Virus record (IMG/VR): IMGVR_UViG_2690316248_000012 | Span: 1 to 55,951 of that record | Strand: one strand, 5' to 3' | DNA from: a virus | Lineage: Duplodnaviria; Heunggongvirae; Uroviricota; Caudoviricetes | Length of the DNA stretch: 55,951 nucleotides | Shown here: positions 2,733-20,001 of the stretch, one piece after another | Numbering within the stretch: position 1 is the first letter of the stretch | How the letters are laid out: each line of letters begins with the position of its first letter | Made by a program: the position numbers and the translations under genes | Notes under the pieces: model-generated | Seen by the model: only the letters and a program-made list of their open reading frames with translations | What the model was told of the DNA's origin: nothing | The model's database searches: none

Positions 2733-2776
2733 CCCATCAACCCCGCCATTTCGGTTCAAGGTTGATGGGTTTTTTG
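2733..2776. terminator. rho-independent terminator-like hairpin at chromosome/prophage junction
   Basis: cccatcaacc ... ggttgatggg stem followed by tttttt; lies between ybjL stop and ogr. Confidence 0.5.
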
Positions 2777-2855
2777 TTGCCTGAAATTTAAGATGTTTAA
2801 AATCATGATGTTAGAAGCACTGTTTTTTAACGATGGCGACAAAATGGCGGCAGCG

Positions 2856-3107
2856 TCAAAGAGAGAGCGCCACCTGTCCTGATTTCATTGGATGCGGCTG
2901 AACTGGATTAGACTCTTTTGGTGTTGCAATCGAACGAACAAAAGTTTCATGGGTAACAAAAGTATGGCTGCAGTTAATGTTCTGGCACTGGTTATAACGC
3001 TCTTTGGTCAATGAAGATACCTGAAAACTGCTGCGAGTATGGGCGGCACTTCCACACAGTGGGCAAATCATCATTTTTCGAGTTCTCCCCATTTTTGCTA
3101 AATTCAC
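2856..3107 (-). CDS. ogr: Ogr/Delta-family zinc-finger late transcription activator
   Basis: 83 aa with CPLCGSAAH...CQNINCSHTF four-Cys pattern as in P2 Ogr; terminal position next to D as in P2. Confidence 0.8.
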   Translation of the reverse strand: MNLAKMGRTRKMMICPLCGSAAHTRSSFQVSSLTKERYNQCQNINCSHTFVTHETFVRSIATPKESNPVQPHPMKSGQVALSL

Positions 3108-3164
3108 AACAATGATACCGTATTATTCCATTTTGCAAACTTAAAAGTTCTCCATTGCGAAGAA

Positions 3165-4265
3165 TCATTCCATTTCGAAATCATCAATCCTCACTTCAAG
3201 CTCCAGACTGGTCGTAAAACCGTTATCCGGGCTGACGGTATGTGTCAGAGTCGTAATGGTCCATTCCGCATCATCTATCGGCTGTTTAAAACCACTGACC
3301 TTCACAGGCATTTCCGTGTAGAGATCTGCCCGCCCTTCCGCCAGTTGTAGCGAGAATGACGCAACGCCACGTTGCAGGCGTTCCCACTGCATTTTCGCTG
3401 CCCGTTCGGCGTTACTCCGATTGGCATAGGTGCGATTGAGTACCAGCACGTTTTCATCCGTACCCACCAGGTAATCACCCTGCTTCACTTCCGGCTCTTT
3501 CTTCTGCTTCTTAGTTCTGCGCTTACGCTTCACCGTGGTGCTTTCTTTCTTCGCAGGTTCGCGGGTATGCAACCAGCTGGCAATGACGCCCGTGTAGGCT
3601 CCGCGATCTGCCAGGGTAAAGCGGTGACTGTCGCCGTCCTTGCGTGTGATAGTGATCACTGGCAGTGGTTTACCAGTGGCGCTTTTGCCCTGCCCCTGCC
3701 GGATGAATAACAGATTGCCATTTTTCACCGACGCGATGGCACCGTACTGTCGCGCCAGCCGCATCAGAAAACTGCCGTCACTCTCATTAGTCTGGTCTAT
3801 ATGCTCCACGGGCTTATCCGACAGGTCTTTACCCAGTGCCATCTTCAGCTTGTGACGCGCGGCTATTTCCTTAACCACTTCCCCGATGGTGGTGTTATGC
3901 CACGATTTTTCACGGCGGGTATTCAGGGTTTCCCGAAAATCAGCACTTCGCGCCCGGATAGTCAGGCGGTCCGGTGCGCCAGTGTGTTCAATCTCGTCCA
4001 CCGTGAATGCCCCTTTCGGGAAAAGCGGCTGCCCCTTCCAGCCCAGCGCCAGCGTAATGACCGCACCACGGCGCGGCAGCACGATTTTTCCGTCAGCGTC
4101 GTCCAGCTCCAGATCAAGCTGGTCCGCTTCAAAGCCCCGGTTATCCGTCAGCGTAAGCCCCATCAGGCGGTTGTCCAGCACAGTGGTGATATCCTTGCCT
4201 GCAATACTGATGCTGAATGCCGGAGTTTTGTTGCTTTTGTTAAGCAGTTCAGAGCTGAAATTCAC
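3165..4265 (-). CDS. D: P2 gpD-like tail protein (late control D)
   Basis: 366 aa; position after U and before ogr; a paralogous gpD-like protein occurs at 50662-51834. Confidence 0.8.
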   Translation of the reverse strand: MNFSSELLNKSNKTPAFSISIAGKDITTVLDNRLMGLTLTDNRGFEADQLDLELDDADGKIVLPRRGAVITLALGWKGQPLFPKGAFTVDEIEHTGAPDRLTIRARSADFRETLNTRREKSWHNTTIGEVVKEIAARHKLKMALGKDLSDKPVEHIDQTNESDGSFLMRLARQYGAIASVKNGNLLFIRQGQGKSATGKPLPVITITRKDGDSHRFTLADRGAYTGVIASWLHTREPAKKESTTVKRKRRTKKQKKEPEVKQGDYLVGTDENVLVLNRTYANRSNAERAAKMQWERLQRGVASFSLQLAEGRADLYTEMPVKVSGFKQPIDDAEWTITTLTHTVSPDNGFTTSLELEVRIDDFEME

Positions 4266-4747
4266 GACAGCAGCCCTCCAACCGTTTTACTGATATCGCT
4301 TAAAGCAGACGTTGCCGTGTCCTGCAGATTATTCAGTTGAGTACTGAGATCACCGAACATATCGGACAGGGATTCATCCACCCGTTTTAGCGACAGGGTG
4401 AACTCAATCCGGCGCGGCATACCGTCGCGGAAAAACTCCGTTTTAGTCTGATTCAGTCCCTCAATCACATACATGCCGTAAATCGTGCCGCTTCCTTCAA
4501 TCAGGGGCCATGCTTTCCCCTGTTCTGCCATCTGCTCCAGTGCCAGTAACGACAGCCTGCCGCCTGTTATCTCCGGCATAAGAACACCGGAAAGCGTCAG
4601 CATGTCGTTTTCCGGTCCCAGAAACTGCGTGGACGGACGACGGTTTACCCTGCTGTTTGCCGCATGTCGCCAGCTGCGTTGATACTGCAGCTCCTGATAC
4701 GGCACGGTGCGCAGCATAAACACGTACAATCCCAGCACCATCATCAT
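4262..4747 (-). CDS. U: P2 gpU-like tail protein
   Basis: 161 aa; start overlaps the tape-measure stop; P2 gene order T-U-D. Confidence 0.8.
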   Translation of the reverse strand: MMMVLGLYVFMLRTVPYQELQYQRSWRHAANSRVNRRPSTQFLGPENDMLTLSGVLMPEITGGRLSLLALEQMAEQGKAWPLIEGSGTIYGMYVIEGLNQTKTEFFRDGMPRRIEFTLSLKRVDESLSDMFGDLSTQLNNLQDTATSALSDISKTVGGLLS

Positions 4748-7700
4748 GCGTCGTATCCCCCCTGATCGCTGTAGTTACTCCTGGCTTTTGCCTTCAGCCT
4801 GCGTTCACGTTCATCAAGCTGACGGGCCACCTCCCGCGCAATATCCTGCGCACTTTGTCCTGGCTGCGTCTGAATGATGATCTGCGTCGGTGCCTCAATC
4901 CGTTGAACGGGCGGCACAGTGGCTGCACGACTCACCATCGCTTCGCCGCCTTTCGCGGGAAGTGCCAAAGGATGTAACGGTGGAAGCTCTGCAGGCGCGG
5001 CAGCAACGCCCATCATTCCGGCAACAACAGCAGCCAGTGCAGCGGTATTTTTCCGGCTGGTCACATTTGCCGGGCCGTTAACAATTTCCGGCCCGTTTTC
5101 ACCGACGATGCCAAACTGCCCGCGCGGGATATAGCCGCCGCTGTCATACATCCCCGCAAAGCCATATCCCCATGACGGAAAACCACCCGATGGCATCATC
5201 ACTTTGCCGTCTGCATTCACCGTCGCAGGTTGCTGACGCGTCACGCGTTCCGGCAGTTTTGCCTTTGCGGCCTCTTTACTGACAATGCCGAGTTTTTCCA
5301 GCAACCAGGATACGCCGGATTTCAGGGAGTCCAGCGGATGCATGACCATATTCAGTCCTTCCGCCAGTGCCTCCCCGAATCGTTGCCCCATTGCCGCTGC
5401 GCTCTGCAGTTCAGCAGAGGTCGACTTAACGGGCGTCAGCAGATCAGTAAACCAGCCCCACAACGCCTGCACTTTGTCGCCAATCCACTGGAACACAGGC
5501 TTAAGTGGTTCGAATGCGGCACTGACGGGACCAGCCGCTGCTTTGAATCCTTCCACCACGCCACCGAGAAATGCGGTGATGGGTTGCCAGTATTTCCAGA
5601 CAACCAGTGCCACACCCGCCAGTGCTGTAACCACAAGACCTATTGGACTAAGCAGAGCACCTAACAGACCAGATACGGCATACAGGGCAACGCGCAACAT
5701 CGCCAGTGGACCAGATGCCAGTACTCGCAGCACCGCGCCTGCGGCGGTCAGTCCACCGCGTAGTGCTGCCAGTGGATTCATAAACATCACAGCAACCGCA
5801 CGTAAACCGGATAATCCAGACCGCAACAGTGCAACCGGCGCACCTGCTACAGTTTTCAGGACATTTCCCGTCAGTGATGCCGTGCGGCGCAAAGACGACA
5901 ACGGCGCAGTAAGTAAACCCGCGGCGTTGCCCGATGAAGCAAGCCCGCGTCGCAGCTGTGCCAGTGGTGCGCCAGCCAGCCAGGACAACGCGCTGCTGGT
6001 TCGAGTTACTGCTGCCGTAACGGAAGGTAACGTTTTGATACCCAGCACAGAGAATCCCAGACGGATCACTGCCAGCGGCCCCAGCACTGCAGCCAGCGCT
6101 ACCGCTAAGGTGCCGAGGCCTACGGTAACCGCAGCCACCACAGCGGCTACTTTCATCAGTGTGCCTGTCAGTCCCGGGTTAGCTTCCACCCAGCGGCGCA
6201 ACGCCCCCGTGATGCTTTTCACCGTGTACAGAATATCCATCAGCGGCTGGCGCAGCGTCTCGCCCAGGCTGCTGAAGGTGTTCTGCGCTCCGGTTTTGAT
6301 CAGCAACCACTGCGCAGAAAGTGAGTCCTTGTTAATGTCGGATTCTTTCTGCATGGAAGCGAGCGCATCATTGCCCGCTGTCAGTTTTAGCTGGCGCTGC
6401 AGTTCCGGAAGGTTGTTTGCCAGTTTCGCCGCGTCATCACCAAACTCTTTACCAAACAACATGGTCATGGCAGACAGACGCTTGTCCTGCGGCAGTGCGT
6501 TCACCTTCTCCAGCACACGCTGGATAGTTCCCATCGCATCCTTCGTCATCTGCTTTTCAATCACTTCAGGATTGAGTTTCAGCAGATTCATCCCTTCAAA
6601 GAAACTCTTGCTTTGCATGGTGGCAATGGACAATTCACGCACCATCGCGTTTGCTGCACTGGCTGCAACCTCCGGCGCAGCGCCCAGTGTCAGAAAGGTG
6701 GAACCCAGTGCCGCCGCTTTACGATAATCCAGACGGTCAGCCACACCGCCCAGACGTTGCATCACATCAATGATGTCCGCCCCTTTCGACATGGCGTTAT
6801 CATCCAGATAGTTCAGTGCATCGCCGAGCTGTTCAATATTGCGGGTAGGTATTTTGTAGAGCTGGGCGATTTTCCCCAGACTTTCTGACAGTTCATCCGC
6901 TGGCAGCTCAAAGGCTGTTGCCGCCTTTGCTGCCGTACTGGCGAAGGCCAGCAGGTCACGTTTCTGGTCTTCCCAGCTGTCGTCAGGGTTTGCGACGTTC
7001 ATGCGCGCACCACCTTCAACCAGTGCAGCGAAGTCCACCGCACCGTTTTCCATCGGCAACTGTTCGCTGGCAGCCTTGATGGCATCCTGCATTTCATAAA
7101 AACGTACAGTGCGGTTGCCATTATCGTCACGCAGACCATTGACCTGCTTTGCCACACCTTTCATGGCATCTTCCATGCTGGTATAGCTTTTTACTGCCGC
7201 CATCACTGGCGCACCCATTGCCAGCCCTGCAGCCGTGGTAGTGGCTCCGGCTCCTGCGATGCGATCGCGCACTTCAAGCCGTCTTGAGTATTGTTCTCTG
7301 GCAGCGTTCATCCGTGCCTGTTGTTCACCCAGACGTTTAAGTGCTTTTTGCTGACCCTCCAGTGCCTGCCTTGTTTCTTCAGCATTTTTCTTAAGTTCTC
7401 GCTGGGCACTACTGAGTTGTCTGGTATCAATCCCTGATTCTTTAAGTGCCTGACGTTGTCTTTGGACCGCCCCCAACAAGCCGTTATAGGTCTGCTGAAG
7501 TTCCTGTACTCGTGTTTTGGCCTGACTGAATAACTTTGCCTGCGCGGCGGTTGGCCTGTTAGTGGCAGCAAATTGTGTGGCGAGTTTTGCCGCCTCTTCG
7601 CGGGCTGCGTTCAGGTTGTTGGCTGTTATGGCTAGTTGCGAGCGCGTCTTGCGAAATTCATCAATTCTGCCAGCCTGCTTATTCAGTTCTTTGAGGCTGT

Positions 7701-7821
7701 TTCGGGTATTCTGAATTGCGCCAGCCAGCTCTTTCGAACTGGCCTGTGCAGCACGGAATGGGCGGGTGAGTTTGTCAACCGCATTAAGAATGACCTGCAG
7801 GCGCAGGTTATTATCACTCAT
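4744..7821 (-). CDS. T: tail tape measure protein (gpT-like)
   Basis: 1025 aa, coiled-coil-rich N-terminus, Ala/Gly-rich hydrophobic middle; follows E/E'. Confidence 0.85.
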   Translation of the reverse strand: MSDNNLRLQVILNAVDKLTRPFRAAQASSKELAGAIQNTRNSLKELNKQAGRIDEFRKTRSQLAITANNLNAAREEAAKLATQFAATNRPTAAQAKLFSQAKTRVQELQQTYNGLLGAVQRQRQALKESGIDTRQLSSAQRELKKNAEETRQALEGQQKALKRLGEQQARMNAAREQYSRRLEVRDRIAGAGATTTAAGLAMGAPVMAAVKSYTSMEDAMKGVAKQVNGLRDDNGNRTVRFYEMQDAIKAASEQLPMENGAVDFAALVEGGARMNVANPDDSWEDQKRDLLAFASTAAKAATAFELPADELSESLGKIAQLYKIPTRNIEQLGDALNYLDDNAMSKGADIIDVMQRLGGVADRLDYRKAAALGSTFLTLGAAPEVAASAANAMVRELSIATMQSKSFFEGMNLLKLNPEVIEKQMTKDAMGTIQRVLEKVNALPQDKRLSAMTMLFGKEFGDDAAKLANNLPELQRQLKLTAGNDALASMQKESDINKDSLSAQWLLIKTGAQNTFSSLGETLRQPLMDILYTVKSITGALRRWVEANPGLTGTLMKVAAVVAAVTVGLGTLAVALAAVLGPLAVIRLGFSVLGIKTLPSVTAAVTRTSSALSWLAGAPLAQLRRGLASSGNAAGLLTAPLSSLRRTASLTGNVLKTVAGAPVALLRSGLSGLRAVAVMFMNPLAALRGGLTAAGAVLRVLASGPLAMLRVALYAVSGLLGALLSPIGLVVTALAGVALVVWKYWQPITAFLGGVVEGFKAAAGPVSAAFEPLKPVFQWIGDKVQALWGWFTDLLTPVKSTSAELQSAAAMGQRFGEALAEGLNMVMHPLDSLKSGVSWLLEKLGIVSKEAAKAKLPERVTRQQPATVNADGKVMMPSGGFPSWGYGFAGMYDSGGYIPRGQFGIVGENGPEIVNGPANVTSRKNTAALAAVVAGMMGVAAAPAELPPLHPLALPAKGGEAMVSRAATVPPVQRIEAPTQIIIQTQPGQSAQDIAREVARQLDERERRLKAKARSNYSDQGGYDA

Positions 7822-8250
7822 CGTTGGCCCCGCTTCTCTGAATCGCTTTATACCGCCATTCCAGCACTTCGGTCAGCGCCATAACGTCAGTAACGGATGG
7901 CGGCCAGTGAAAGATGGTGGCGATATCAGCCACCAGATCGTCAACCGTCAGGCTGTCGGTAAACCGGCAAGCACCGACTTCTTCAACAAAAAAGTGACAA
8001 CCTCAACCGACATGGCAGTGAGATCTGCCGGGTCCATCTCTGCAATTTCCTGTGCAGTCAGTGCCGGACTGGAGATGCGGGGGATCACGGTCATCATCGC
8101 GTTCACATCCATATCCATAATGGCCTGCAGGCGTGTACCGCGCAGCGCACCGGACTGCGGTTTACGCAGCACAATTTCGGTAATTTCTGTTTTACCGCGC
8201 TTGATAGGGGTATCCAGTTGAATGGTCTTTTCAGTCTGCTTATCGCTCAT
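7814..8250 (-). CDS. gpE+E' frameshift product (programmed -1 frameshift at TTTTTTG)
   Basis: Hand translation: -1 slip at the T6G heptamer (plus coords about 7987-7993) opens a frame running to a TGA at 7814-7816, overlapping the T start codon; classic P2 E/E' arrangement. Confidence 0.6.
7948..8250 (-). CDS. E: tail assembly chaperone gpE
   Basis: 100 aa ORF immediately upstream of the tape measure gene; contains a TTTTTTG slippery site near its 3' end. Confidence 0.75.
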   Translation of the reverse strand: MSDKQTEKTIQLDTPIKRGKTEITEIVLRKPQSGALRGTRLQAIMDMDVNAMMTVIPRISSPALTAQEIAEMDPADLTAMSVEVVTFLLKKSVLAGLPTA

Positions 8251-8304
8251 TTTGTTGTCCTGTAAATTGGGTTCTGGCGCGGCATTCCGCGCCGTTCAGA
8301 TACA

Positions 8305-8820
8305 TCAGAGGCCGAGAGCGTTGCGGTGCGCTTCCATCAGGTCCACACCGTCCACAATTTCCACCATGTTGATAAGGTCCACTTCATAGAGCACCTCACC
8401 ATTGATGGTCAGCTTCGCGTAGCTGTTGGTACTGGTCACTTTGGTGGTGTTGCTTTCGCCCGTCTTCCACTCACCGGAATCCACTTCTTTGTGACGTCCA
8501 CGCACCACAAGCTCCACGGCCTGCACTTCCCCGGTATCGTCACGCTGGATAGAGCCGGTAAAGCGCAACTGGATGCCATCCACCGTGGCTTTGCCTATCT
8601 GCTTAAACAGCAGCAGTTCAGTACCACCAATGGAAAATTCTGTGTCCAGCGCACTGTCATCAAGCCCCAGATCCACATCCACTGCCCCCGGCATTCCGCC
8701 GCCGCGATACTTCTCATATTTGCGGGTGAATTTCGGCAGCGTCAGCGACTCAACGATCCCCTGCCAGTTGTTCCCGTCGTTAAACAGGTTCAGGTGTTTT
8801 AATTTGCGTGGTAAAGCCAT
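8305..8820 (-). CDS. FII: tail tube protein (gpFII-like)
   Basis: 171 aa; directly downstream of sheath gene as in P2. Confidence 0.8.
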   Translation of the reverse strand: MALPRKLKHLNLFNDGNNWQGIVESLTLPKFTRKYEKYRGGGMPGAVDVDLGLDDSALDTEFSIGGTELLLFKQIGKATVDGIQLRFTGSIQRDDTGEVQAVELVVRGRHKEVDSGEWKTGESNTTKVTSTNSYAKLTINGEVLYEVDLINMVEIVDGVDLMEAHRNALGL

Positions 8821-8829
8821 GTTGTCCCC

Positions 8830-10002
8830 TTACGCGCTGACCTGGCTGGCGAAATTCACCAGGTACTGATCGGTGATGCGCTGACGCAACATCAGGTTTT
8901 CAAGTGGCGGCACTGGCGTGTAGTCGTAGTCGATGGTGAGTTTTCCGGCTTTCAGAGTGTCTTTGTCGTTCACCGACTCATCCAGCCAGCAATCACCACC
9001 AATGAGATACCCCTGACTGACCAGGCTGCGCATTTTGGCGCGGATGCCCTCGATAATGTCGCGCGCCAGCGACGGGTTCAGCGGTTTGTCCACTGCCCAC
9101 ATGTGCGCTTCTGCCATTGTGTCCGTCAGCACCTGCGCCGTGCGGGTGTAGTTTTCGAAGGCAAAGAGCGGGTCATCACTCAGGCAGCGGGAACCCCAGA
9201 AGCGAAAACCGTCTTTGCGGATAAGGGTGGTGACGTCGTTCTGGTTCAGCAGTCCCGCATCGCTTGCCGGGTCCTGCAGATCCCAGAACACATCAGCAGA
9301 AATTCCGGTGACACCGTTAACGCCTACGTTGGACAGGCTTTTGTGCCATCCGGTCTGCTCGTCAATTTTGGCGCGCAGACCAAGCGCACGGGCGGTGGCA
9401 TAAGCCGTTGCTTCGGCATTCAGCACCGTGTCCCAGCCAGTAAAGTCGGGCCAGATCAGCATTCCTTCACGCTGACTGAAGTTTTCACGGTAAGTGATTG
9501 CTTCCTGCACCGTCTTGCAACCATACGCTGACAGGTAAGCAAATCCACGCAGGCTTTGCGCCACGCTCAGCAACTCAGTAGCTACCGCCTTCGTGTCGTG
9601 ACCTGGCACGCCGAGAATGCGCGGTTTAACGCCGAGCTGTGACTGGGCAGATAACAGGGCTTTCATGCCTGTTTTTTTACCTTCAGCAGTCACTGCGCCG
9701 ATGATATTGGTCGTGGTTTCTTCTTCCGTTTCACCCTGCGGCACACGCACAACAACGGTCACGGGTTTTGCCTGGTCAGCGATGGCATCCAGCGAACGGG
9801 CCAGCGTACCGGACTCGCCCGCTTTACCGCTGGCAGTCAGCACATCAGTGATCAGCACGGGTTTATTAAGAGGAAACATTTTTGCATCGGCATCATCGCC
9901 CGTGCAGACCATACCCACGATGGCGGTGCTCACCGTGGTAATGGATCGGGTGCCTTCGTTGACTTCAACAACGCGCACTCCGTGGTGGTAATCCTGAGCC
10001 AT
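8830..10002 (-). CDS. FI: contractile tail sheath protein (gpFI-like)
   Basis: 390 aa; size and position match P2 FI. Confidence 0.85.
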
Positions 10003-10078
10003 AGTGGCGAACCTCCTGATTGGATTAGGCTTCGCCCTATGTTGAAGTGATTGTGCCTGACAAACAGCTAAGCGCAGT

Positions 10079-10096
10079 TGTACCGTTATTCACACA
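10079..10096. promoter_or_regulatory. TGT-N12-ACA element upstream of FI (candidate Ogr-dependent late promoter box)
   Basis: tgt accgttattcac aca read directly; centred about 85 bp upstream of the FI start codon; P2 late promoters carry this dyad near -55. Confidence 0.4.
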
Positions 10097-10144
10097 AAAT
10101 GACGGTATTTGTCTGCTTTCAGGGATAATCAAAATAAAGCTGAT

Positions 10145-10717
10145 TCAGGGAGATTCATTGCTCTTATTTGCCGGAAATTTTCTATAAATGGTAGAAACGC
10201 CTACATCAAAAATCAGTGCAATACGCTGTCTTGATTCTCCGGCCTCGAGTAAACGCCCAATCTGTGCCCACTGTTCGGTAGTCAACTTAGGACGGCGTCC
10301 ACCTACTCTGCCTTTAGCACGAGCTGCAGCCAGCCCTGCCCTGGTACGTTCAACTATCAGTTCGCGTTCCATTTCAGCCAGGGCACCCATGACATGAAAA
10401 AAGAAACTGCCCATTGGGGTACTGGTATCAATACTGTCAGTCAGACTTCGGAAATTCACGCCGCGCTGGCGCAACTCTTCTATCAGCGTAACAAGATGCC
10501 GCATACTGCGCCCCAACCTGTCCAGCTTCCAGACAACCAGTGTGTCACCTGCCGATAGTGTCCTGAGCAGTTTTTTAAGCCCCGGTCTGTCGGACTTAGT
10601 GCCACTGATTTTGTCCTCAAAAATCCGCTCACATCCCGCGCAGTTCAGCGCACTACGTTGCAAATCGGTGTTCTGGTCATTTGTTGACACGCGTACATAG
10701 CCAATAAGCATGATCAT
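10145..10717 (-). CDS. serine DNA invertase (Gin/Pin/Hin/Cin family)
   Basis: 190 aa; N-terminal GYVRVSTNDQ catalytic serine motif, C-terminal HTH; adjacent to the invertible segment. Confidence 0.9.
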   Translation of the reverse strand: MIMLIGYVRVSTNDQNTDLQRSALNCAGCERIFEDKISGTKSDRPGLKKLLRTLSAGDTLVVWKLDRLGRSMRHLVTLIEELRQRGVNFRSLTDSIDTSTPMGSFFFHVMGALAEMERELIVERTRAGLAAARAKGRVGGRRPKLTTEQWAQIGRLLEAGESRQRIALIFDVGVSTIYRKFPANKSNESP

Positions 10718-10797
10718 CTCCTTGAATAAAAACCGGGGATGATGCCAGTTAGTCGTAATCGCTGCATTTTCTTAAACGTTGGTTTAGGAGAAGGCTC

Positions 10798-11194
10798 TGC
10801 ATTACCCGTAGGTGTGCCTGTTCCGTGGCCTTCAGTCACACCGCCAACAGGCTGGCTGAAATGCAACGGTGCAGCTTTTTCTGCCGAAGAGTATCCGGAA
10901 CTGGCAAAAGTTTATCCGACAAATAAATTGCCAGATTTACGCGGCGAATTCATTCGTGGGTGGGATGATGGAAGAGGAATTGATTCAGGACGGACTCTCC
11001 TGTCTGCTCAGGACGGGAGCATTGAGGCACACGGCCATGATTACAATGGGGTCATCTATACTTCTAGCGGTCCTTCCTGGGCTAATACGACGGATGCGGG
11101 ACACCGGGCATATTCGGGATTTACATCATCATATGGCGGAAGCGAAACCCGTCCACGAAATATTGCATTTAACTATATCGTAAGGGCTGCATAA
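10798..11194 (+). CDS. alternative tail-fibre C-terminal variable segment (no own start; expressed only after inversion)
   Basis: Frame reads GLGEGSALPVGVPVPWP...NIAFNYIVRAA, homologous to the C-terminus of the fibre at 54497-55951; begins at the crossover site. Confidence 0.6.
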
Positions 11195-11796
11195 TGGATA
11201 ACGCCGTATTAAATAGCGAGATTATTGCCACGAAGGCGGGGAATATTACCGTCTATAACTATGATGGTAAAACTCGGGAATATATTTCTACTTCAAATGA
11301 ATATCTTGCCATTGGTGTCGGTATCCCTGCATATTCCTGTTTAGATTCACCAGTTACATGTAAAGCTGGTTATGCAATCTGCCGTTCTGCAGATTTTAAC
11401 TCATGGGAATATGTGCCAGACCATCGCGGTGAAATCGTTTTTAGCACCGAAACAGGAGAATCAAAAGAAATCACAGCACCAGGTGATTACCCTGAAAATA
11501 CAACCACTATCGCCCCGTTAACGCCATACGATGAATGGGATGGTGAGAAATGGGTGACAGATACTGAGGCACAGCATAGCGCCACACTAGACGCGGCAGA
11601 AGCACAGCGTCAGTCACTGATTGATACTGCAATGGCTTCCATTAGTCTGATTCAACTGAAATTGCAGGCCGGGCGGAAGCTGACGCAGACAGAAAACACC
11701 CGACTTAACGCTGTGCTGGATTACATTGATGCGGTGACGGCAACAGATACCAGCACAGCGCCGGACGTCATCTGGCCTGAACTGCCGGAGGCGTAG
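11194..11796 (+). CDS. tail fibre assembly protein (alternative-orientation chaperone)
   Basis: 200 aa; C-terminal TATDTSTAPDVIWPELPE motif shared with the opposed chaperone; position after the variable fibre segment. Confidence 0.7.
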   Translation: MDNAVLNSEIIATKAGNITVYNYDGKTREYISTSNEYLAIGVGIPAYSCLDSPVTCKAGYAICRSADFNSWEYVPDHRGEIVFSTETGESKEITAPGDYPENTTTIAPLTPYDEWDGEKWVTDTEAQHSATLDAAEAQRQSLIDTAMASISLIQLKLQAGRKLTQTENTRLNAVLDYIDAVTATDTSTAPDVIWPELPEA

Positions 11797-12211
11797 GCCA
11801 TTCAATATCTGGAGCACTGGAGGTATCAACCAGTTCCAGTGCGTCCAGATAATCCAGCCACAAATTATATTGCGCCAGTTCCTCACCTTTCAGGCGACCA
11901 ATCGCTGCTTTACCAGGCCATTGCTTACTGTATATGTATTCGTTGACCTGATTAATCAATTGCTGCTTTTCCAGTTCGGCTGCGGCAATTTGTTCCTCAT
12001 GAGTTGGCGGTGGAATTTCCCCCCAGGTGGGAAGGCCATCATCACCCGCGATGCGTACTTTCCCTTGCAACGTTCTGTCTTCAATAAATTCCAGGTAAGT
12101 GTCATATGTCACTTCGACAATATCAGCAAGTTCCCATCCGGCCTGTTCATATTTCGCCACATCATTTTTAGCGAAAAAACTATTATTTGAGGCGCTATAA
12201 ACCATTTCCAT
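11768..12211 (-). CDS. G: tail fibre assembly protein (gpG-like)
   Basis: 147 aa directly downstream of H; C-terminal LVDTSSAPDIEWPTPP motif. Confidence 0.75.
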   Translation of the reverse strand: MEMVYSASNNSFFAKNDVAKYEQAGWELADIVEVTYDTYLEFIEDRTLQGKVRIAGDDGLPTWGEIPPPTHEEQIAAAELEKQQLINQVNEYIYSKQWPGKAAIGRLKGEELAQYNLWLDYLDALELVDTSSAPDIEWPTPPAVQAR

Positions 12212-12212
12212 A

Positions 12213-13619
12213 TTAATACCCTACTGCAATATAAAAAACTGATTCACCAGCGTCCTGAGCACCTGTCCCCGGAATTCCAGACCAGGCTTTGTTAATGAAT
12301 GCAAAACTGGTATTACTCAGATCAGATGCTCTGTACATCGGGCTGAACATCCAGTAGTTGGCTCCATATGTTTGTCCGAAAACAATGCCATAGCACTGAT
12401 TTGTAAATGGCGTAGAAAATAATTTTCCACCATTACCAGCGATAGCACCGAATCGCATCTGGAATCCATTAGGGAAATTAACGCCACCCGATGCGGAAGA
12501 CCAGAAAGACATATCCGGTATCTGATTATCTCCTGTGCCCACATCCCTTTTCGCCGCTTCTCCTAAACCAAGGTATGCGAGAAGACCAGCAACATCCTTT
12601 CCACTCAAATTAGTCAGCGTATTGTCCAGCGGTTGTTTACCTGCTAGCGCATTAAGCATTGTCGTGGCAAAGTTCGGGTCATTCCCCAGCGCCGCCGCCA
12701 GTTCGTTCAATGTATCCAGTGCCGCAGGTGCAGACCCCACCATTGCTGCAATCGCCGATTTCACAAAAGCCGTAGTGGCAATCTGTGTATTGTTAACCGA
12801 CTGTGCGGCAGTAGGGGCTGTTGGCGTTCCGGTGAGTGCCGGACTCGACAGCGGCGCTTTCAGTGCCAGCGCATTGTTAATGGTGGTACTGAATTTCGGA
12901 TCATTGTTAATGGCTGCGGCTATTTCTTTTAGCGTGTCCAGCGTGGCTGGCGCACCATTAATAAGGGCCGTCAGTGCCGCCTGAACAAACGCGGTGGTCG
13001 CAAGTTGCGTGGTATTATTCCCCGCCGCTGGCGTCGGCGCTTTGGGGGTTCCGGTAAATATCGGGCTGGCTTTTGGCGCATACTGTGAATGTGGGTCCGC
13101 TGCGGCAAGGTGTTTTGCCATTTGGTCATCCACATACACCTTCAGCTCCAGTGCCTTATCATCCACATACTTGCGAGTTGCCAGTACTACAGCAGGGTCG
13201 ATTTTCAGGGTGATATTGTCCGTACTGCTGGTAATCAGCACCATGCGCACGGTCTGGGTACGCCCGCTGCCTTCAGCCAGTTGCGGCTTATAGCTTTCCG
13301 GGCAGTTTCCCACGGCAATCAATACCCCGGACTCATCAAACAGGCCCACTTCACGTATCCACCAACCACCCTCATTTTCAGGGATCACCTGTTCAGCAAT
13401 AATCTGGCTGCTGTTCTGCGGGTCGATATAGAGCATATTCAGCGCAGCCCGGCGTTTCTCATTTACCAATGCTGTCTGCTTGGCGTCCGGCGTTGGCAAT
13501 GTTCCGCCGCCATCGCCGACCGCCATATGGGTAATTTTTAAAGGCACACCGAGCGCGGCGGCGCTGGCGAGTTTCGCCGCGCCAATATCCGTCAGCAGGG
13601 TATAAAATTTTGTGCTCAT
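12213..13619 (-). CDS. H: tail fibre protein (gpH-like), C-terminus encoded within the invertible segment
   Basis: 468 aa; repeated TQLATTAFV / TPKAPT motifs; crossover sequence falls near codon 348 (YLGLGE). Confidence 0.8.
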   Translation of the reverse strand: MSTKFYTLLTDIGAAKLASAAALGVPLKITHMAVGDGGGTLPTPDAKQTALVNEKRRAALNMLYIDPQNSSQIIAEQVIPENEGGWWIREVGLFDESGVLIAVGNCPESYKPQLAEGSGRTQTVRMVLITSSTDNITLKIDPAVVLATRKYVDDKALELKVYVDDQMAKHLAAADPHSQYAPKASPIFTGTPKAPTPAAGNNTTQLATTAFVQAALTALINGAPATLDTLKEIAAAINNDPKFSTTINNALALKAPLSSPALTGTPTAPTAAQSVNNTQIATTAFVKSAIAAMVGSAPAALDTLNELAAALGNDPNFATTMLNALAGKQPLDNTLTNLSGKDVAGLLAYLGLGEAAKRDVGTGDNQIPDMSFWSSASGGVNFPNGFQMRFGAIAGNGGKLFSTPFTNQCYGIVFGQTYGANYWMFSPMYRASDLSNTSFAFINKAWSGIPGTGAQDAGESVFYIAVGY

Positions 13620-14221
13620 GGATTCACTCTCATTGTGTCAATAACATGGACCGCTCCGCCTTCATGCGCGGTGCCGCCGGAAATAATTGTTTCGTTGATA
13701 TACGGATAGATCGTGATTTCTTCGCCAAGATAGCTGGCAGCTCCCACCCAATGCGGGCCGCTGGTCTGCAGGTTGATGGACATGCCGATCATGTGACGGC
13801 TACATGGTTTGGCATCGCTTATCAGTCGCTCAAGTTCCAGATAGGTATCTTCAGTGATGCCCTGGTCCTGCACGCCGATATCCAGACGAAACGTGCCCGG
13901 AGTCTCTCCGGTCTGCCACCACTCAATAATGCGGATCAGAAAGCCGAACGGCTCCACCACCCGCCGCACGGCACTGGTGGTCCCTTTATGCTGATGAATA
14001 TAAAAAGCATCCTTCACCACCTGGCGCTTGACGCTTTCTGTCCAGCCCTCGTCCCAGCGATCCACAGAGAACGCCCAGGCGAGATAAGGCAGGAAACTGA
14101 CCGGACAGGTTGCCGGATTCCACAAGTCACGCAGCGGCACCTGCAGATCAGAAATCCCGCTACAGGTCTGCGCCAGTCGGCGCTCCAGTGAAGTTGAACC
14201 CAGTGGCAGCAGACTATTCAT
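13616..14221 (-). CDS. I: baseplate protein gpI-like
   Basis: 201 aa; position between J and H. Confidence 0.75.
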   Translation of the reverse strand: MNSLLPLGSTSLERRLAQTCSGISDLQVPLRDLWNPATCPVSFLPYLAWAFSVDRWDEGWTESVKRQVVKDAFYIHQHKGTTSAVRRVVEPFGFLIRIIEWWQTGETPGTFRLDIGVQDQGITEDTYLELERLISDAKPCSRHMIGMSINLQTSGPHWVGAASYLGEEITIYPYINETIISGGTAHEGGAVHVIDTMRVNP

Positions 14222-15122
14222 CCGTTCCTCCGTTGGTTACGCTCCACTGCGTACATGATGCGGCCTGTGTTTTGTTCAGGACCACATCAGCCAGCGGTGA
14301 AGCCAGCTCCACACGTTGAACCCCCTCAACATGCAGCGCGGCAAAAATGGCACTACGGCGAATATCCCGACCAAGCCGCGTCTGACTGGCGATGTACTTC
14401 TGCAGGCTGGCTTTTGCCGCTGCCATTACCGGCTCCGCTTCCGGTCCCGGATAGAGAAAAATGGTGGCTTCCACACGGTACGGGATGATTTCTGCGCTGC
14501 GAACCGTCAGACGGTCAGCCACCGGGCGGACGTTCTCACTGTTCAGGGCTTTCTCCACCACATCCAGCAAGTCTTTTTCTGCTGTTCCGTCGCCTTCACG
14601 GCTCAGGACAGTAAGCACCACCTCTGCAGGAGCCGGACTGGTTGCACTGGCATCCGCCACCCGACCGTCGGCGCTTCGGGCATGAAATTCATAAGCTGCA
14701 GTTGGTCCCGCAACTGAAAGCCCCTCAAAGGCTGCAGGCACACGCAGGCGTAACGCTTCATCGCTTTCCATCACTGCTGCAACGGGCGGCACAGCGTCAT
14801 TATCAGCAGGTGTCACCGTCAGGCGTTTCACGTTGTAGTTGGCAGCGAGCTGGTCAAGATCGCCGCCCATCGCGTAAGCCACCATCACCGCCTGCGCGGC
14901 TTCGTTAATGCGTTGGCGCAGAAGCAACTCACGGTAAGTATTCTCCTGCAACAATTTGGTGACGGGTTCAGATTCCAGTTCCAGCGTGCGGATCACTGCT
15001 TCCTGCTCATCTTTCGGATGAAGCGCCACAAATTCTGCCTTGCGTTCGGTAAGCAGCGTCTCAAAGTCCGGCACATCCACAATCTGCGGCGCAGGCAACT
15101 GCGAAAGGTCAATCACTGCCAT
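14214..15122 (-). CDS. J: baseplate protein gpJ-like
   Basis: ORF track gives 315 aa; start trimmed to the MAVIDLSQLP methionine (about 302 aa, P2 gpJ size). Confidence 0.75.
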   Translation of the reverse strand: MAVIDLSQLPAPQIVDVPDFETLLTERKAEFVALHPKDEQEAVIRTLELESEPVTKLLQENTYRELLLRQRINEAAQAVMVAYAMGGDLDQLAANYNVKRLTVTPADNDAVPPVAAVMESDEALRLRVPAAFEGLSVAGPTAAYEFHARSADGRVADASATSPAPAEVVLTVLSREGDGTAEKDLLDVVEKALNSENVRPVADRLTVRSAEIIPYRVEATIFLYPGPEAEPVMAAAKASLQKYIASQTRLGRDIRRSAIFAALHVEGVQRVELASPLADVVLNKTQAASCTQWSVTNGGTDE

Positions 15123-15468
15123 TCTCTGCTCCTGTCGATACGGAAAGGGACACAGGTACACCGTTATTCCGCCGCCCGGTCAGCTCCACCACCATAGAAC
15201 CGTCAAAGTTGCTGTTGATGGTGATGGAATCCAGCGTCAGCCGTGGCTCCCAGCGACTCAGCGCCACATACACTGCCGACATGACCTGCAGGCGTAACGC
15301 CGGATTTTGTGGCTGGTCTATCAGTGCCGACAGCAGGGAACCATATTCCCGGCGGGCAATGCGGCTACCCTGCGGTGTCAGCAGAATGTCCCGCACCGAC
15401 TGGCGCAGATGGTCAATATCAGTAATAGCTTTGCCGCTGGTATTGTTCATCCCGCTATAAAGCGTCAT
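15109..15468 (-). CDS. W: baseplate wedge protein gpW-like (GPW/gp25 family)
   Basis: 119 aa; position between V and J. Confidence 0.75.
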   Translation of the reverse strand: MTLYSGMNNTSGKAITDIDHLRQSVRDILLTPQGSRIARREYGSLLSALIDQPQNPALRLQVMSAVYVALSRWEPRLTLDSITINSNFDGSMVVELTGRRNNGVPVSLSVSTGAENGSD

Positions 15469-16043
15469 ACCGGGCCTCCGGTTGTGTCGCCGCCTTTCAG
15501 GACGCCAGTATGCTGATGTGCATCAACCACAATTCCGTTAGAACTCATTGCACCGCCGCCCTGGGTAACACCACCATTGATCACTACTTCGCTGTTAATA
15601 CGCGTGCGGTCAGCCTCCAGCACAAACTCTCTGGTTTTCAGGGTGATGTTGTCAGCAGCCTCAATGACCATGGATTTGATGCCCCTGACATACCAGCGCC
15701 CGGTGGCTGGTTCGTATTCAAACCAGCCACCGTCAGGATGTTCTGTCACGCAGGCTTCCGCCGACGTCGACGGTGGTGCGAACTGATTCGAATAGACAGC
15801 GGGCAGCGCAAAGGCGGTTTCCAGATTTCCTCCCAGACTCAGCAGCACCACCTGCTCACCTTCCGATGGTCGCCACCATGTGCGGGCATTACCCGCGCGC
15901 AGCGTCAGCCAGTTAATCCAGTTGGTTTCAAGGTCGCCCGTTTTCACCCGACAAAGCCAGTTTTCCTTGTCCACTTCAGTGACTACCCCTGTGCGGATCA
16001 GGTTGGTGATAAGGCGCATGATTTCTGTGAGTTGTGTATTCAT
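15465..16043 (-). CDS. V: baseplate spike/assembly protein gpV-like
   Basis: Start trimmed to MNTQLTEIMRL; alignable by eye to P2 gpV; paralogous to 51831-52427. Confidence 0.8.
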   Translation of the reverse strand: MNTQLTEIMRLITNLIRTGVVTEVDKENWLCRVKTGDLETNWINWLTLRAGNARTWWRPSEGEQVVLLSLGGNLETAFALPAVYSNQFAPPSTSAEACVTEHPDGGWFEYEPATGRWYVRGIKSMVIEAADNITLKTREFVLEADRTRINSEVVINGGVTQGGGAMSSNGIVVDAHQHTGVLKGGDTTGGPV

Positions 16044-16090
16044 AAGATTATTTTTCCATGCTTTACACAACCTCTTCAAACAGCTTATTT

Positions 16091-16108
16091 TGTATAAAAG
16101 AAGATACA
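16091..16108. promoter_or_regulatory. TGT-N12-ACA element upstream of V (candidate Ogr-dependent late promoter box)
   Basis: tgt ataaaagaagat aca read directly; about 50-65 bp upstream of the V start codon; spacing to ATG is shorter than expected. Confidence 0.3.
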
Positions 16109-16136
16109 ATTTTCTTTGAAAAGAAATAAACCCTCT

Positions 16137-16185
16137 GGTTAGAGGTTAGAGGTTAGAGGTTAGAGGTTAGAGGTTAGAGGTTAGT
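16137..16185. repeat. tandem heptanucleotide repeat (GGTTAGA) x6 plus one imperfect unit
   Basis: ggttaga repeated head-to-tail from 16137; lies between the Old-like gene stop and the V promoter region. Confidence 0.9.
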
Positions 16186-16218
16186 AGAATATCGCAGGGT
16201 TTCCCCTGCGACCATTTA

Positions 16219-18177
16219 TCAATTAAACTTTACAGGTTTATCACTTATAAAAAAATTTTCAATTTTGGCAATCCACTCTGGCCTTTTCCGCTCATTTCGC
16301 TCACAGATTGAAATATATTCCTTTGAAAAATCAAACTTAATTCCTTCACGGTCAAAAAAAGCATCAAGCGTTTTTTTGTTCTTGGGTGACAAATCCATCG
16401 CAGCAAACGATGAATGTCTTTCATCTATCATAACATTACTATTAGGCAGCAATGCCTGAAGCTCAGGAAAACGTGAAGAAAATGATGTTAAAGCCTCTAT
16501 AAACGATACAGGATTAAGACAATCCTCTATTTCTGTTGCAGGAGAAACTGGATTGGAAGAAATATCAACCAACTTCACTGAATCACCTACACTAACAATT
16601 CGCTTACAAACAACATGCGGCATAACTGGGGTATCATATGACACCAACTCTGAATCTGTATCGGTTAGTAAGAACACTTTTCCTTTGAGGTCTTTTTTGA
16701 ACTCTTCATAAGAAGCTTCTAAATGCTTAAATATTTTTTTAACTTCACTAGCTCCCCCTACAGGCACAATCCTTAGCCTTTTATTTTCTACCAAGTCCTT
16801 TAGATAATGCGAAAGATATATTTTTTCTGTAGTACCCTCACAAATCAACCAATTGTAAGGTTTCTCAGCCAAACAGCTAGATATTATGGATTGTATAAGG
16901 TCATTTACACTTTTTATTTTTATATCAAATGGCATACCCGGGGAAGAGGTTTTTACTTTCTTCCTGACTTCTTCTCTATAACTGGCAAGATCATATAATT
17001 CAAAATGATGAGTTGAATCTGTTTTAAGGATAGTTGTGGTACATCCATTTTCGACGGTTGGAAGATAGCCATACCAATGTGAAGTAAATATTAATTGTTC
17101 ACATATACCACTAATAGAATAGAGCTTTTCAAATTGTTCAAAACATGCAGACATATGAAGAGAACATTCTGGCTCATCAATTCCAATAATCAGATTATCG
17201 CCATTTTCTCTATGATTGGTAAGAAACCCATATGCAATATCCATTATTGCACGTTGCTTCTCCCCTGAACTTAGCGAGCTAATTTCAATCCAACCTGAAT
17301 TCTGCTTTTTATTTAATTTCCTAACTTTGAAGAATGCTTCGATAATCAAATTATAAACATCTTTCTTTTTTAATCGCGATTGTCTCTCGCCAGATGTTCT
17401 ATAACCATATTCTTCAAGCTCCTCTTCAACACCATCCAGAAATTTGGCAAGCCCTGTATTGATTTGACTTATGGTTCTATCAGATATTCTATCTTTAATT
17501 ATCTGCTCTAAAGACTCACCCATCAACTTTTGTACTTCACTTGTTTCTAGCTTCGTAAACGATTCAGAGTCTATATCCTTTGGAATATATATATATTCAT
17601 ACTTATGGCGGACATGATGTAATAAATACCCAAAGTGCTTACTAAGCAACTCGCTCGAAACTTTATTATCGGGATTATCAACCTCCAAAAGTCGACATAA
17701 ACTCTTCCCATTAAGAATCGAAATACTTACATCACCATCTTTCTCGACACCCAGAGGGATCAAAAAATAATCTTGGAGATTTAAATTTCTTTTTAATTTG
17801 TTAATATGTTCAAAAAACGTATTAATTATATTTCGTGTTGTTGGCGTCAATGTAACATCAGCATTACTATTGCTATATTCTAATACTAATTGCGTTAAGA
17901 TTTCAGCTTTAGCATGATGATCTTCATGTAATTCCTCTCGCTTTATAAGATATAAAGGAACAATATGTGGAGAAGGTCTGTCACTGGAGGTTCTTTTAAA
18001 TGAAGAATTAATATTCCATGGTTTGTTATTAATAAACGAATCTAAAGCCTCAAGAACAGAACTTTTGCCAATTCCATTGTTACCAACAATTCCACAAAAC
18101 TGACTTCCAGAAGATAACGGTATGTAATGATTTCCGTTGTATGTTTTAAAATACCTTAAAAAAATCCCTACTATCAT
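16219..18177 (-). CDS. old: OLD-family overcoming-lysogenization-defect nuclease (ABC-type ATPase + TOPRIM), P2 Old-like
   Basis: 652 aa; Walker A GNNGIGKSS, signature LSSGEKQ, Walker B IGIDEPECSLH, H-loop FTSHW, TOPRIM Glu in LICEGTTE and DxD in LLTDTDSE; same motif order as P2 Old; AT-rich gene. Confidence 0.8.
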   Translation of the reverse strand: MIVGIFLRYFKTYNGNHYIPLSSGSQFCGIVGNNGIGKSSVLEALDSFINNKPWNINSSFKRTSSDRPSPHIVPLYLIKREELHEDHHAKAEILTQLVLEYSNSNADVTLTPTTRNIINTFFEHINKLKRNLNLQDYFLIPLGVEKDGDVSISILNGKSLCRLLEVDNPDNKVSSELLSKHFGYLLHHVRHKYEYIYIPKDIDSESFTKLETSEVQKLMGESLEQIIKDRISDRTISQINTGLAKFLDGVEEELEEYGYRTSGERQSRLKKKDVYNLIIEAFFKVRKLNKKQNSGWIEISSLSSGEKQRAIMDIAYGFLTNHRENGDNLIIGIDEPECSLHMSACFEQFEKLYSISGICEQLIFTSHWYGYLPTVENGCTTTILKTDSTHHFELYDLASYREEVRKKVKTSSPGMPFDIKIKSVNDLIQSIISSCLAEKPYNWLICEGTTEKIYLSHYLKDLVENKRLRIVPVGGASEVKKIFKHLEASYEEFKKDLKGKVFLLTDTDSELVSYDTPVMPHVVCKRIVSVGDSVKLVDISSNPVSPATEIEDCLNPVSFIEALTSFSSRFPELQALLPNSNVMIDERHSSFAAMDLSPKNKKTLDAFFDREGIKFDFSKEYISICERNERKRPEWIAKIENFFISDKPVKFN

Positions 18178-18322
18178 AAAATTAGCTCCATTAGTGAGGT
18201 GAAGACATTAAAGTACAACAAGATTAATCTCAAAAAAAGAGCTTTATAGTATATTCAAGCAAGGTATCTTATGTAGAACGATAAAGTCTCCCTCCACTAA
18301 TTCTCTTAACCCACTATTTACT

Positions 18323-18760
18323 TTAGCGTTTTAAGTAAACACCCAAGTTCAAGTTACTAATATCCTTAGTAAATCCTAAAAGCCTTCTCTCAGGGTACTG
18401 TACTTTTAAACCTCTTCGACTAACACGGTCACGCAGTCCATAGTGGTGTACACAGGCGATGCGCTGGACTTTTCCATCAAAATACACGCAGGCATAATCC
18501 GCTGTGGCGGCAGTTTTCAGGTATTTATTAGTGCGCAATTTGGCGAACATCTGGCGTTTGATGCGCCCCTTCTTACTGCGGGCTGCTACCCGGCGCGGCT
18601 CAAAGCCGCTGCCATCAGGGTTAAGCTGCAGCCTGATATTCTTCTGCTGATTGCGGCGCAACTCCTGCGCCAGTTCCCGCATCATACGCTGGCGTGTGGC
18701 AGGCTCCAGATTCGCCAGCAAGGCCGCCAGCCACTCATCCACCTTCTGCAGTTCAGCCAC
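18323..18760 (-). CDS. S: tail completion protein gpS-like
   Basis: 145 aa; position after R and before V as in P2. Confidence 0.65.
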   Translation of the reverse strand: MAELQKVDEWLAALLANLEPATRQRMMRELAQELRRNQQKNIRLQLNPDGSGFEPRRVAARSKKGRIKRQMFAKLRTNKYLKTAATADYACVYFDGKVQRIACVHHYGLRDRVSRRGLKVQYPERRLLGFTKDISNLNLGVYLKR

Positions 18761-19184
18761 GTTTCACCGTCCACATTTCTTCAGGTTCATCAGGTTCCGC
18801 TATAGCTTCAACGCTCGACACACTGCCGTCAGTGCTGACCAGCACACGCTCCGTCAGTTGCAGGTTAAGGCTGATATCACAGACATCGTTGCGCAGAATA
18901 TCCACCTCAAAGGTGAATAACTTTTCCCGTAACGCCGGATTATTGATGGCATCGGGCTGGTTATCCCGCAGCCACAGCAAAACCGGGGCCATCAGCAGAT
19001 TCTGGTCGCCGCTGAAATCCTCAATCACCACGTTCAGGGTGTAGCGGTACTCCCATGACATGGAGCTGGCCCCCGTGGCAACCAGCGAACCGTTATCCAC
19101 AAACAGATGCAGTTTGTCCGGGTTATTGCGGACATAAGGCACCGCCTTATTGAGGGCGTGGCGCAGGGATTGTGGTTTGTTCAC
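18753..19184 (-). CDS. R: tail completion protein gpR-like
   Basis: KPQSLRHALNKAV aligns with the P2 gpR N-terminus; start set to the GTG before it (ORF track start 19205). Confidence 0.65.
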   Translation of the reverse strand: MNKPQSLRHALNKAVPYVRNNPDKLHLFVDNGSLVATGASSMSWEYRYTLNVVIEDFSGDQNLLMAPVLLWLRDNQPDAINNPALREKLFTFEVDILRNDVCDISLNLQLTERVLVSTDGSVSSVEAIAEPDEPEEMWTVKRG

Positions 19185-19437
19185 TGTTTCGCTCCTGACA
19201 CGCAATAATCATGTCCACTTTGTCTGCACAGACCGCCCAGGCGGCCTCCGTTTCATCCAACAACGCGTTCAGATCACCGTTAATGCGCGGCGCTGCCTGA
19301 TCCAGCCGACACGGCGTCACTCGCGGACAACCACTGACGGTAAGCTGCACCTCCGGTGAGCGTGGGGCGTTCCCGCAGCCGGATAATGTCAGCAGGCAAA
19401 GGAGTATCAGCCCAGCGGCGTAAATCCTCGTTCTCAC
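19147..19437 (-). CDS. lysC: o-spanin (LysC/Rz1-like outer-membrane lipoprotein)
   Basis: 96 aa; signal peptide with lipobox LTLSGC; overlaps the lysB 3' end in another frame. Confidence 0.75.
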   Translation of the reverse strand: MRTRIYAAGLILLCLLTLSGCGNAPRSPEVQLTVSGCPRVTPCRLDQAAPRINGDLNALLDETEAAWAVCADKVDMIIACQERNSEQTTIPAPRPQ

Positions 19438-19708
19438 GTTTCAGTTCCTCAATCCGGTGTTGTCGTTGTCTCAGCAGTGCGCTGGTCTGTTCTGCGTCGG
19501 CATAGAGCCGCGCCTGCTCCCGGTTGTTGGTTTCAGCCAGAATGGACAGGCTGATAAGCTGGCTGTTGCTCTTTGCCAGTGCCTGGCTTTTGCTCTGCAG
19601 CTCGTCTGCCTGCGTGCTAATGGTCTGGCTGGCATCAGCCAGCCGCCACGTCTGCCAGCCCAGCGCCGCCAGTAATAACGCCAGCACAACCAGCAGCAAC
19701 CGGTTCAT
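19280..19708 (-). CDS. lysB: i-spanin (LysB/Rz-like)
   Basis: 142 aa; N-terminal transmembrane anchor then coiled coil; o-spanin gene overlaps in another frame. Confidence 0.75.
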   Translation of the reverse strand: MNRLLLVVLALLLAALGWQTWRLADASQTISTQADELQSKSQALAKSNSQLISLSILAETNNREQARLYADAEQTSALLRQRQHRIEELKRENEDLRRWADTPLPADIIRLRERPTLTGGAAYRQWLSASDAVSAGSGSAAH

Positions 19709-20001
19709 GCTGCTACCTGTTGCGCCATCTGATTACGGGTGATCCAGAAGGCAATAACGGTCAGTAGATAAAACACCAGGGTAATAGCCCACCCCGTCCA
19801 GGCGAGACTTACAACAATCAGCAATCGCATCACCCAACTGGTAAATACGTTTTCTTTTCGGGTAATTGTCTTCAGCAAAGATGCCCTTAACTCCTGCCAG
19901 AGCGGTCCATTCTTAATTAACGCAGCCAGTGCTACCGGAATTACCGCCCATGTCAGCAAACAGGCTACCCAAACGCCGGACGCTGCCAGTTGATCAGACA
20001 T
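19705..20001 (-). CDS. LysA-like/holin-like small membrane protein
   Basis: 98 aa with two to three hydrophobic helices; immediately upstream of the spanins; shorter than P2 LysA. Confidence 0.5.
   Translation of the reverse strand: MSDQLAASGVWVACLLTWAVIPVALAALIKNGPLWQELRASLLKTITRKENVFTSWVMRLLIVVSLAWTGWAITLVFYLLTVIAFWITRNQMAQQVAA

Follow-up and report, generated by a model that had tools for sequence, protein, structure and literature searches.

We analysed a stretch of 55,951 nucleotides (hereafter the window), whose positions 1–19990 are 100% identical to the chromosome of Escherichia coli SF-468, bar one inverted segment. In the annotation of SF-468, the matching region is a P2/186-like prophage whose late genes lie on the minus strand. 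Two genes of this strand, which have the same orientation, border the repeat that is the subject of this work. The downstream gene (15465..16043) encodes the baseplate assembly protein V and is the first of the pV tail operon, based on the RefSeq annotation of the identical sequence and on phage hits, which bears out the label V given earlier to the ORF 16043..15465. The upstream gene (16219..18177) encodes an OLD-family ATPase-TOPRIM protein of 652 amino acids, a defence-type moron inserted between the tail-completion gene S and V, in the slot where P2 carries orf30. The description of this gene as Old-like is fair, since the ORF is matched by AAA_15 (2e-17), AAA_21 and OLD-like_TOPRIM in Pfam and by the models AriA, Old and AriAB in PADLOC.

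The OLD-like protein has no match in a tblastn search of 50,697 phage records, and the pV stretch (16036–16136) has none in phage records either. The homology with other P2-like phages ends at about 16044–16051. From there to the repeat (16044..16136, minus strand), the sequence is found by distant blastn only in 14 E. coli genomes, the same as those compared below, and always with the island that holds the OLD-like gene; the island therefore brought a promoter version of its own. The S–V slot of P2-like phages carries defence-type cargo plus its own version of pV. In one carrier, E. coli APEC 16-1068 (locus L005, 3327–5284), whose repeat has eight copies, an indel splits the OLD-like gene into two CDS, a case of defence-gene decay. 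Homologues of about 66% nucleotide identity are present in E. coli SY3626, MB07081 and ETEC6335, where they lie in the classical P2 hotspot between the portal gene Q and the replication gene A, so that one defence-gene family occupies two slots of P2-like prophages. The P2 literature describes this A–Q hotspot and a minor one "within the tail genes" (PMC9122126, PMC13586616); we found no mention of tandem repeats, gpV or the baseplate in these two papers.

The repeat is a hypervariable heptanucleotide array at 16137..16184. TRF reports a period of 7, 6.9 copies, 100% matches, a score of 96 and the consensus GGTTAGA, that is, (GGTTAGA)6.9 on the plus strand and (TCTAACC)n on the transcribed minus strand, which is the sense strand here. 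The original prediction had described six perfect copies and an imperfect one, in a 175-bp spacer and 29 bp from a TGT-N12-ACA box, and all of this is confirmed: the T at position 16185 turns the seventh copy into GGTTAGT, the spacer extends over 175 bp from the OLD-like stop (16219) to the V ATG (16043), and the box at 16091–16108, 29 bp from the tract, is the only one that the spacer contains. Shuffled sequences predict about 3.6 occurrences of GGTTAGA in the whole 56-kb window, both strands included. There are seven, six of which are head to tail in the tract (the seventh is at 35864), so that the tract is not a chance occurrence. Direct reading shows that every unit carries TAA on the minus strand and TAG on the plus strand, which stop all frames of both strands and rule out that the tract is a coding sequence. 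On the transcribed strand, the OLD-like stop is followed after 9 nt by the hairpin CGCAGGG-GAAA-CCCTGCG, then by AUAUUCU and TAACC(TCTAACC)6; after the array come AGAGG, which pairs with the last CCUCU, then GUUUAUUUCUUUU, the TGT-N12-ACA box and the V ATG. By all sequence-based tests, the tract is a VNTR.

Length variation and origin of the array

The whole locus is present in 14 of the 5,426 complete E. coli genomes, and we compared all 14 loci. The array has 6 copies in five genomes, 7, 8 and 9 copies in two genomes each, and 10 copies in three; the units are always perfect and the junctions are identical in 14/14. When the array was removed and the flanks (6.55 kb) were aligned, eight genomes proved to share a single haplotype, with zero substitutions or indels over 6.55 kb, and yet they have 6, 6, 6, 7, 7, 8, 9 and 10 copies. 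Five alleles on one identical haplotype imply at least four length changes, versus no point change. Two dog isolates which are one substitution apart also differ (9 versus 10 copies). Other carriers are an NCBI genome assembly with 7 copies and a human-gut metagenome contig with 8. None of these 16 E. coli-type sequences has an allele shorter than 6 copies. The copy numbers fall in all three classes modulo 3 (7, 6 and 3 sequences), which indicates that no helical phase is favoured. The draft contigs L171 and L192 end inside arrays, which the behaviour of the assembler could explain in both cases.

The tract is a hypermutable simple-sequence repeat, which changes by whole-unit steps faster than by point substitution. 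It had been proposed from the sequence that the tract could change length by slipped-strand mispairing, and the range of 6–10 copies in 14 genomes, with five alleles on one 6.55-kb haplotype, is what this mechanism predicts; copy number is clearly not invariant among relatives. Slipped-strand mispairing during replication is most probably the mechanism.

As a length marker carried by a prophage, the tract evolves fast. It resembles the intergenic VNTR/MLVA loci of E. coli, which are made of short, perfect, non-coding units, differ by whole units between very close isolates, and have no demonstrated function; unlike these loci, it belongs to a P2-like prophage, where a defence gene and a late promoter are its direct neighbours. 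We found no description of the tract as a typing marker in the literature that we searched. Among the carriers are isolates of extraintestinal pathogenic E. coli from blood, CSF and poultry, and an identical OLD-like protein is encoded in at least 1,040 blocks of a public assembly index. The tract could separate isolates that core-genome SNPs do not distinguish, and short-read assemblies are expected to break there.

Homologues of the OLD-like gene were drawn from IMG/VR, metagenomes and public assemblies. A sister lineage (91% amino acid identity), of the Cronobacter type, consists of Cronobacter sakazakii and two IMG/VR contigs (L191, L166 and L167). It occupies the S–V slot and has kept the hairpin, which is followed by (TCTGCC) in 9, 13 and 14 copies. 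These arrays are at a position homologous to that of the heptamer, vary in length and start after the same TAACC; two units of the nine-copy array are interrupted. The lineages at 84% and at 77% are also in the S–V slot and have no array, but a G-poor, C/T-rich spacer of 25–30 nt, which at 84% lies between the terminator hairpin and the dyad of the promoter. The lineage at 59%, in the same slot, has neither array nor spacer, and that at 73–74%, which is found outside P2 phages, has no array. Upstream of V, no simple-sequence repeat of more than 3.2 copies was found in P2, in 186 or in 76 related contigs. The fact that the array is absent from the more distant S–V lineages and from P2, 186 and the 76 contigs implies that it is dispensable for pV and, judging from these homologues, the OLD-like gene does not require it either. 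Since the relatives at 84%, 77% and 59% occupy the same slot without an array, the latter expanded in place after the insertion. The expansion started from the 3' spacer of the island, either in the common ancestor of the two sister lineages or once in each of them.

Arrays of three or more GGTTAGA units are also found elsewhere: at least 120 stretches of bacterial genomes (cyanobacteria, Bacteroidota, Acidobacteriota, Planctomycetota) have one, as do 26 IMG/VR stretches. These genomes and viral contigs have from 3 to 93 copies and belong to many unrelated taxa, in particular filamentous cyanobacteria. We also considered that heptamer arrays might share a genetic context, which is ruled out: a tblastn search of these stretches found no homologue of the OLD-like protein, V or S in any of them.

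Promoter geometry and predicted RNA structure

The TGT-N12-ACA dyad (16091..16108, minus strand), which we located by pattern search, is a putative Ogr/B activator box of the late promoter pV, centred 56 nt before the V ATG. In the P2 record, the activator site of pV is at 10239–10266, about 55 nt before the start, and the pV start is the first base of V; the window and P2 align without a gap from the dyad to the V ATG. We also compared 76 P2-like contigs from IMG/VR, whose V proteins are 95–98% identical and which have 46 distinct upstream sequences: in 76/76, TGT-N12-ACA is 54–57 nt before the V ATG. The earlier assignment of a V promoter is thus well supported, and the dyad before V, some 55 nt upstream of the putative start, has the layout of a P2-type Ogr/B late promoter. 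By analogy with P2, we infer that the pV start of the source phage is at or near the V ATG.

Relative to this putative start, the tract spans positions −94 to −141, upstream of the activator box (whose centre is at −56) and downstream of the OLD-like stop codon. It is outside any ORF, outside the 5'-UTR, outside the −35/−10 interval and outside the interval between the activator box and the core promoter. This is not the position of a repeat that mediates phase variation, as in a contingency locus. Upstream of the tract, a pattern search found neither a second TGT-N12-ACA nor any other recognisable site. A scan of 15900–18500 for sigma-70 promoters gave 9 sites versus 9.3 expected, which is indistinguishable from chance. 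The TGT-N12-ACA box is part of a longer, imperfect dyad (TCTTTTCAAAG...CTGTTTGAAGAG) within 16066–16140. A lone AGAGGTT at 16067–16073 is the complement of one repeat unit and has not been kept in the Cronobacter-type lineage.

Two hairpins are predicted on either side of the repeat. Hairpin 1 (CGCAGGG-GAAA-CCCTGCG; 16192..16209, minus strand) is strong and GC-rich, has a 9-bp stem in the RNA fold and begins 9 nt past the OLD-like stop. It probably serves the OLD-like transcript as an intrinsic terminator or as a 3'-end hairpin; the AUAUUCU that follows it gives only 4 U in 8. It is kept in the Cronobacter-type lineage, and the lineage at 84% has a related but less complementary sequence. Hairpin 2 (CCTCT-AACC-AGAGG; 16132..16145, minus strand) emerged from a consensus scan and from the MFE fold. 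It is formed by the last unit and its flank, and is followed by GTTTATTTCTTTT; this weak, terminator-like element has 5 bp and a good U-run, and the Cronobacter-type lineage does not have it in this form. Between the two hairpins, the repeat RNA is G-free, C-rich and, in both MFE and centroid folds, unpaired. Nowhere else in the 56-kb window, whichever strand is read, is the excess of C over G as large as in the 78 nt at 16192–16115 of the minus strand, with 24 C and 4 G.

Rut sites of Rho-dependent terminators are C-rich, G-poor and unstructured stretches of RNA, of about 70–80 nt. The repeat RNA has this composition, is predicted to lack structure, and is untranslated RNA just past a stop codon; in composition and modelled structure it thus resembles a rut site. 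On the other hand, the tract alone is only 41–69 nt long, and there are relatives without it. No Rfam family was found in 15000–19000 (E ≤ 1). In a 481-nt fold, only the last units pair, with AGAGG and with the AGAGGTT at 16067–16073. A long hairpin like that of hmw (see below) was considered and rejected; the pairing is taken as a chance result, the Cronobacter-type lineage having no such complements.

Interpretation of the array

Repeats of similar size or position are known from other systems. The poly-psi heptanucleotide repeat of neuO, in the CUS-3 prophage of E. coli K1, is part of the coding sequence and, by shifting the frame, turns translation on or off (PMC9659370). Like the tract, it is a prophage-borne 7-nt repeat, subject to slipped-strand variation and associated with phage resistance (PMC9659370), and some carriers of the tract are O1:K1:H7. 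However, the tract is intergenic and has stops in all frames, which makes an action by frameshift impossible. The TTTTGAT heptads of PctxAB in CTX-phi also form a heptamer array of strain-variable copy number upstream of a prophage promoter; these AT-rich sites, within the promoter, are bound by ToxT, ToxR and H-NS (10.1101/2021.05.14.444153). By contrast, the tract is beyond the activator box, has no known binding protein, and its sister lineage has a different unit. In Haemophilus influenzae, the (ATCTTTC)n of hmw1A/hmw2A is in the 5'-UTR, where about 10 units pair with a G-rich arm and are cut by RNase III (PMC12721329, PMC8262952). The tract would likewise be a pyrimidine-rich, transcribed 7-nt repeat with a purine-rich complement downstream, but it is upstream of the putative pV start and the complement has just 5–7 nt (AGAGG, AGAGGTT). 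Last, the TAAA tract of nadA in Neisseria meningitidis is flanked by defined NadR operators and sets the spacing of the distal one (PMC2791445). Both repeats are upstream of the core promoter, where any effect would be exerted via the spacing of a distal element, and no such element was found near the tract. None of the mechanisms of neuO, PctxAB, hmw1A and nadA fits the geometry of the tract.

We think it rather probable that the tract is a genuine hypermutable VNTR, which arose in place and whose length changes are neutral, or nearly so, for the expression of the tail genes. Whole 7-bp units would be gained and lost, most probably via slipped-strand mispairing in replication, and the array would have grown in place from a short C/T-rich, G-poor spacer behind the terminator hairpin of the OLD-family gene, in the S–V ("orf30") slot. 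The tract appears to be upstream of every spacing-critical element of the Ogr/B-dependent pV, and this is why changes in its length are most likely (near-)neutral for the tail genes. If it has any effect, this may be through its RNA, G-free and unstructured, which is flanked by two hairpins at the 3' end of the defence transcript and could curb read-through into the tail operon there. We infer both the neutrality of the length changes and any such role in termination. A counterpoint to neutrality is that two sister lineages keep long, pure arrays at one site despite about 9% protein divergence. The retention of long arrays and the lack of any allele under 6 copies could result from selection for a minimum length and not from persistence through mutation, and the extreme C-over-G bias and the predicted unpaired state of the RNA fit a functional Rho-loading site.

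It may be, although we regard this as rather unlikely, that the G-free, C-rich (UCUAACC)n is a rut-like loader of Rho which, with hairpin 2 and its U-run, terminates defence (or late-operon) transcripts before they reach pV and the tail genes, the copy number setting the efficiency above a minimum length. The C/G ratio at 16192–16115 of the minus strand, the top one of the window, argues for such a role, as do the predicted single-stranded repeat between two hairpins, the first of which lacks a good U-tract, and the terminator-like site at 16145..16132. Like the tract, the sister unit UCUGCC is rich in C (50% C, 17% G), the array-free spacers at 84% and 77% are likewise G-poor, and read-through is a real problem when the OLD-like gene and V are co-oriented. 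However, C-richness is an automatic consequence of the repeat unit, hairpin 2 has just 5 bp and no conserved counterpart in the sister lineage, and some relatives do with a 25–30 nt spacer or with none. We consider it quite unlikely that the tract is a selected contingency element of the defence cassette, whose stochastic gain and loss of units would set either the stability of the defence mRNA or how far constitutive OLD-family transcription is halted before the tail operon, by loading Rho or by forming a 3' end. The cells of a lysogen population would then vary in their defence level or in leaky tail-gene expression, and the arrays of 6–10 × 7 nt and 9–14 × 6 nt, kept independently at one site, would be the trace of selection.

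The original prediction also raised the possibility that the tract modulates the tail operon, or that it is a scar of the insertion. In the former case, the copy number would tune pV by altering either the rotational or linear spacing between a candidate upstream element and the Ogr box, as in nadA, or the number of regulator sites, as in the heptads of ctxAB. In favour of this, contingency loci are typically hypervariable, the tract precedes a promoter, and precedents exist in the TTTTGAT heptads of PctxAB (10.1101/2021.05.14.444153), the TAAA tract of nadA (PMC2791445) and the (ATCTTTC)n of hmw1A (PMC12721329). This is nonetheless very unlikely: at −94..−141 the tract is beyond the activator box, and is not in the −35/−10 or box/−35 interval, in the 5'-UTR or in an ORF; upstream of it there is no second TGT-N12-ACA or recognisable site; 76 related pV regions, P2 and 186 work without an array; no class modulo 3 is preferred; and a late phage promoter that fires only after induction would be an odd target for bet-hedging. 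Regular direct repeats can also be protein-binding arrays, and this one travels with the island rather than with the phage backbone, so it might be an iteron-like array, unrelated to the spacing of pV, for a phage, host or island protein such as the OLD-like protein or a nucleoid protein. We find this highly improbable, since a 7-bp period does not hold the sites on one face of the helix, the sister unit differs in sequence and in period (6 bp), which leaves no conserved sequence-specific site, closer and more distant homologues have no array, and the heptamer arrays of at least 120 unrelated bacterial stretches and 26 viral contigs come without an OLD-like, V or S homologue. As to a scar, or a target-site duplication left by the island, the tract is indeed near the island edge, but this origin is hardly credible. 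Neither GGTTAGA nor TCTAACC was found at the other, S-proximal boundary (18178–18322), the sole other copy in the window being at 35864; the same island exists in the same slot without an array, in the relatives at 84%, 77% and 59%; and the array is 93 bp inside island-specific sequence, not at the homology breakpoint (about 16044–16051).

Most likely, the tract is not a switch but an unstable microsatellite of an ordinary kind. Regulation of the tail operon by the tract is unproven and disfavoured by its position, and a role in termination is possible. Should it be true that copy number tunes termination or the expression of the defence gene, this would be a rare case of bet-hedging based on a simple-sequence repeat in E. 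coli and in a phage defence module; none of the findings requires it.

The surrounding prophages

The inverted segment mentioned above (10779–12574) is 99.9% identical to its SF-468 counterpart. It adjoins a serine recombinase gene and spans tail-fibre and tail-fibre-assembly genes, and appears to be an invertible segment for host range, captured in its other orientation.

The P2-like colinearity with SF-468 ends at 19990, within the lysis region, in the gene between those for lysozyme and LysB. The rest of the window (19991–55951) is a Mu-like transposable prophage (Mor activator, gp16, DUF2786), so the P2-like prophage of the source strain appears to have been split by a Mu-like insertion. 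Among the best matches listed from the 5,426 complete genomes, none spans the 19990/19991 junction, and copies of the same Mu-like element in other E. coli genomes occupy unrelated positions (gcl, rstB, ptsP, flagellin). The Mu-like part contains two longer tandem repeats, one at 48182–48977 (261 bp, 3.0 copies, 96% identity), inside the 1070-aa ORF 46366–49578, and the other at 54725–55272 (300 bp, 1.8 copies, 89% identity), inside an ORF that starts at 54491; these ORFs probably encode the tape-measure protein and the tail fibre of the Mu-like prophage.
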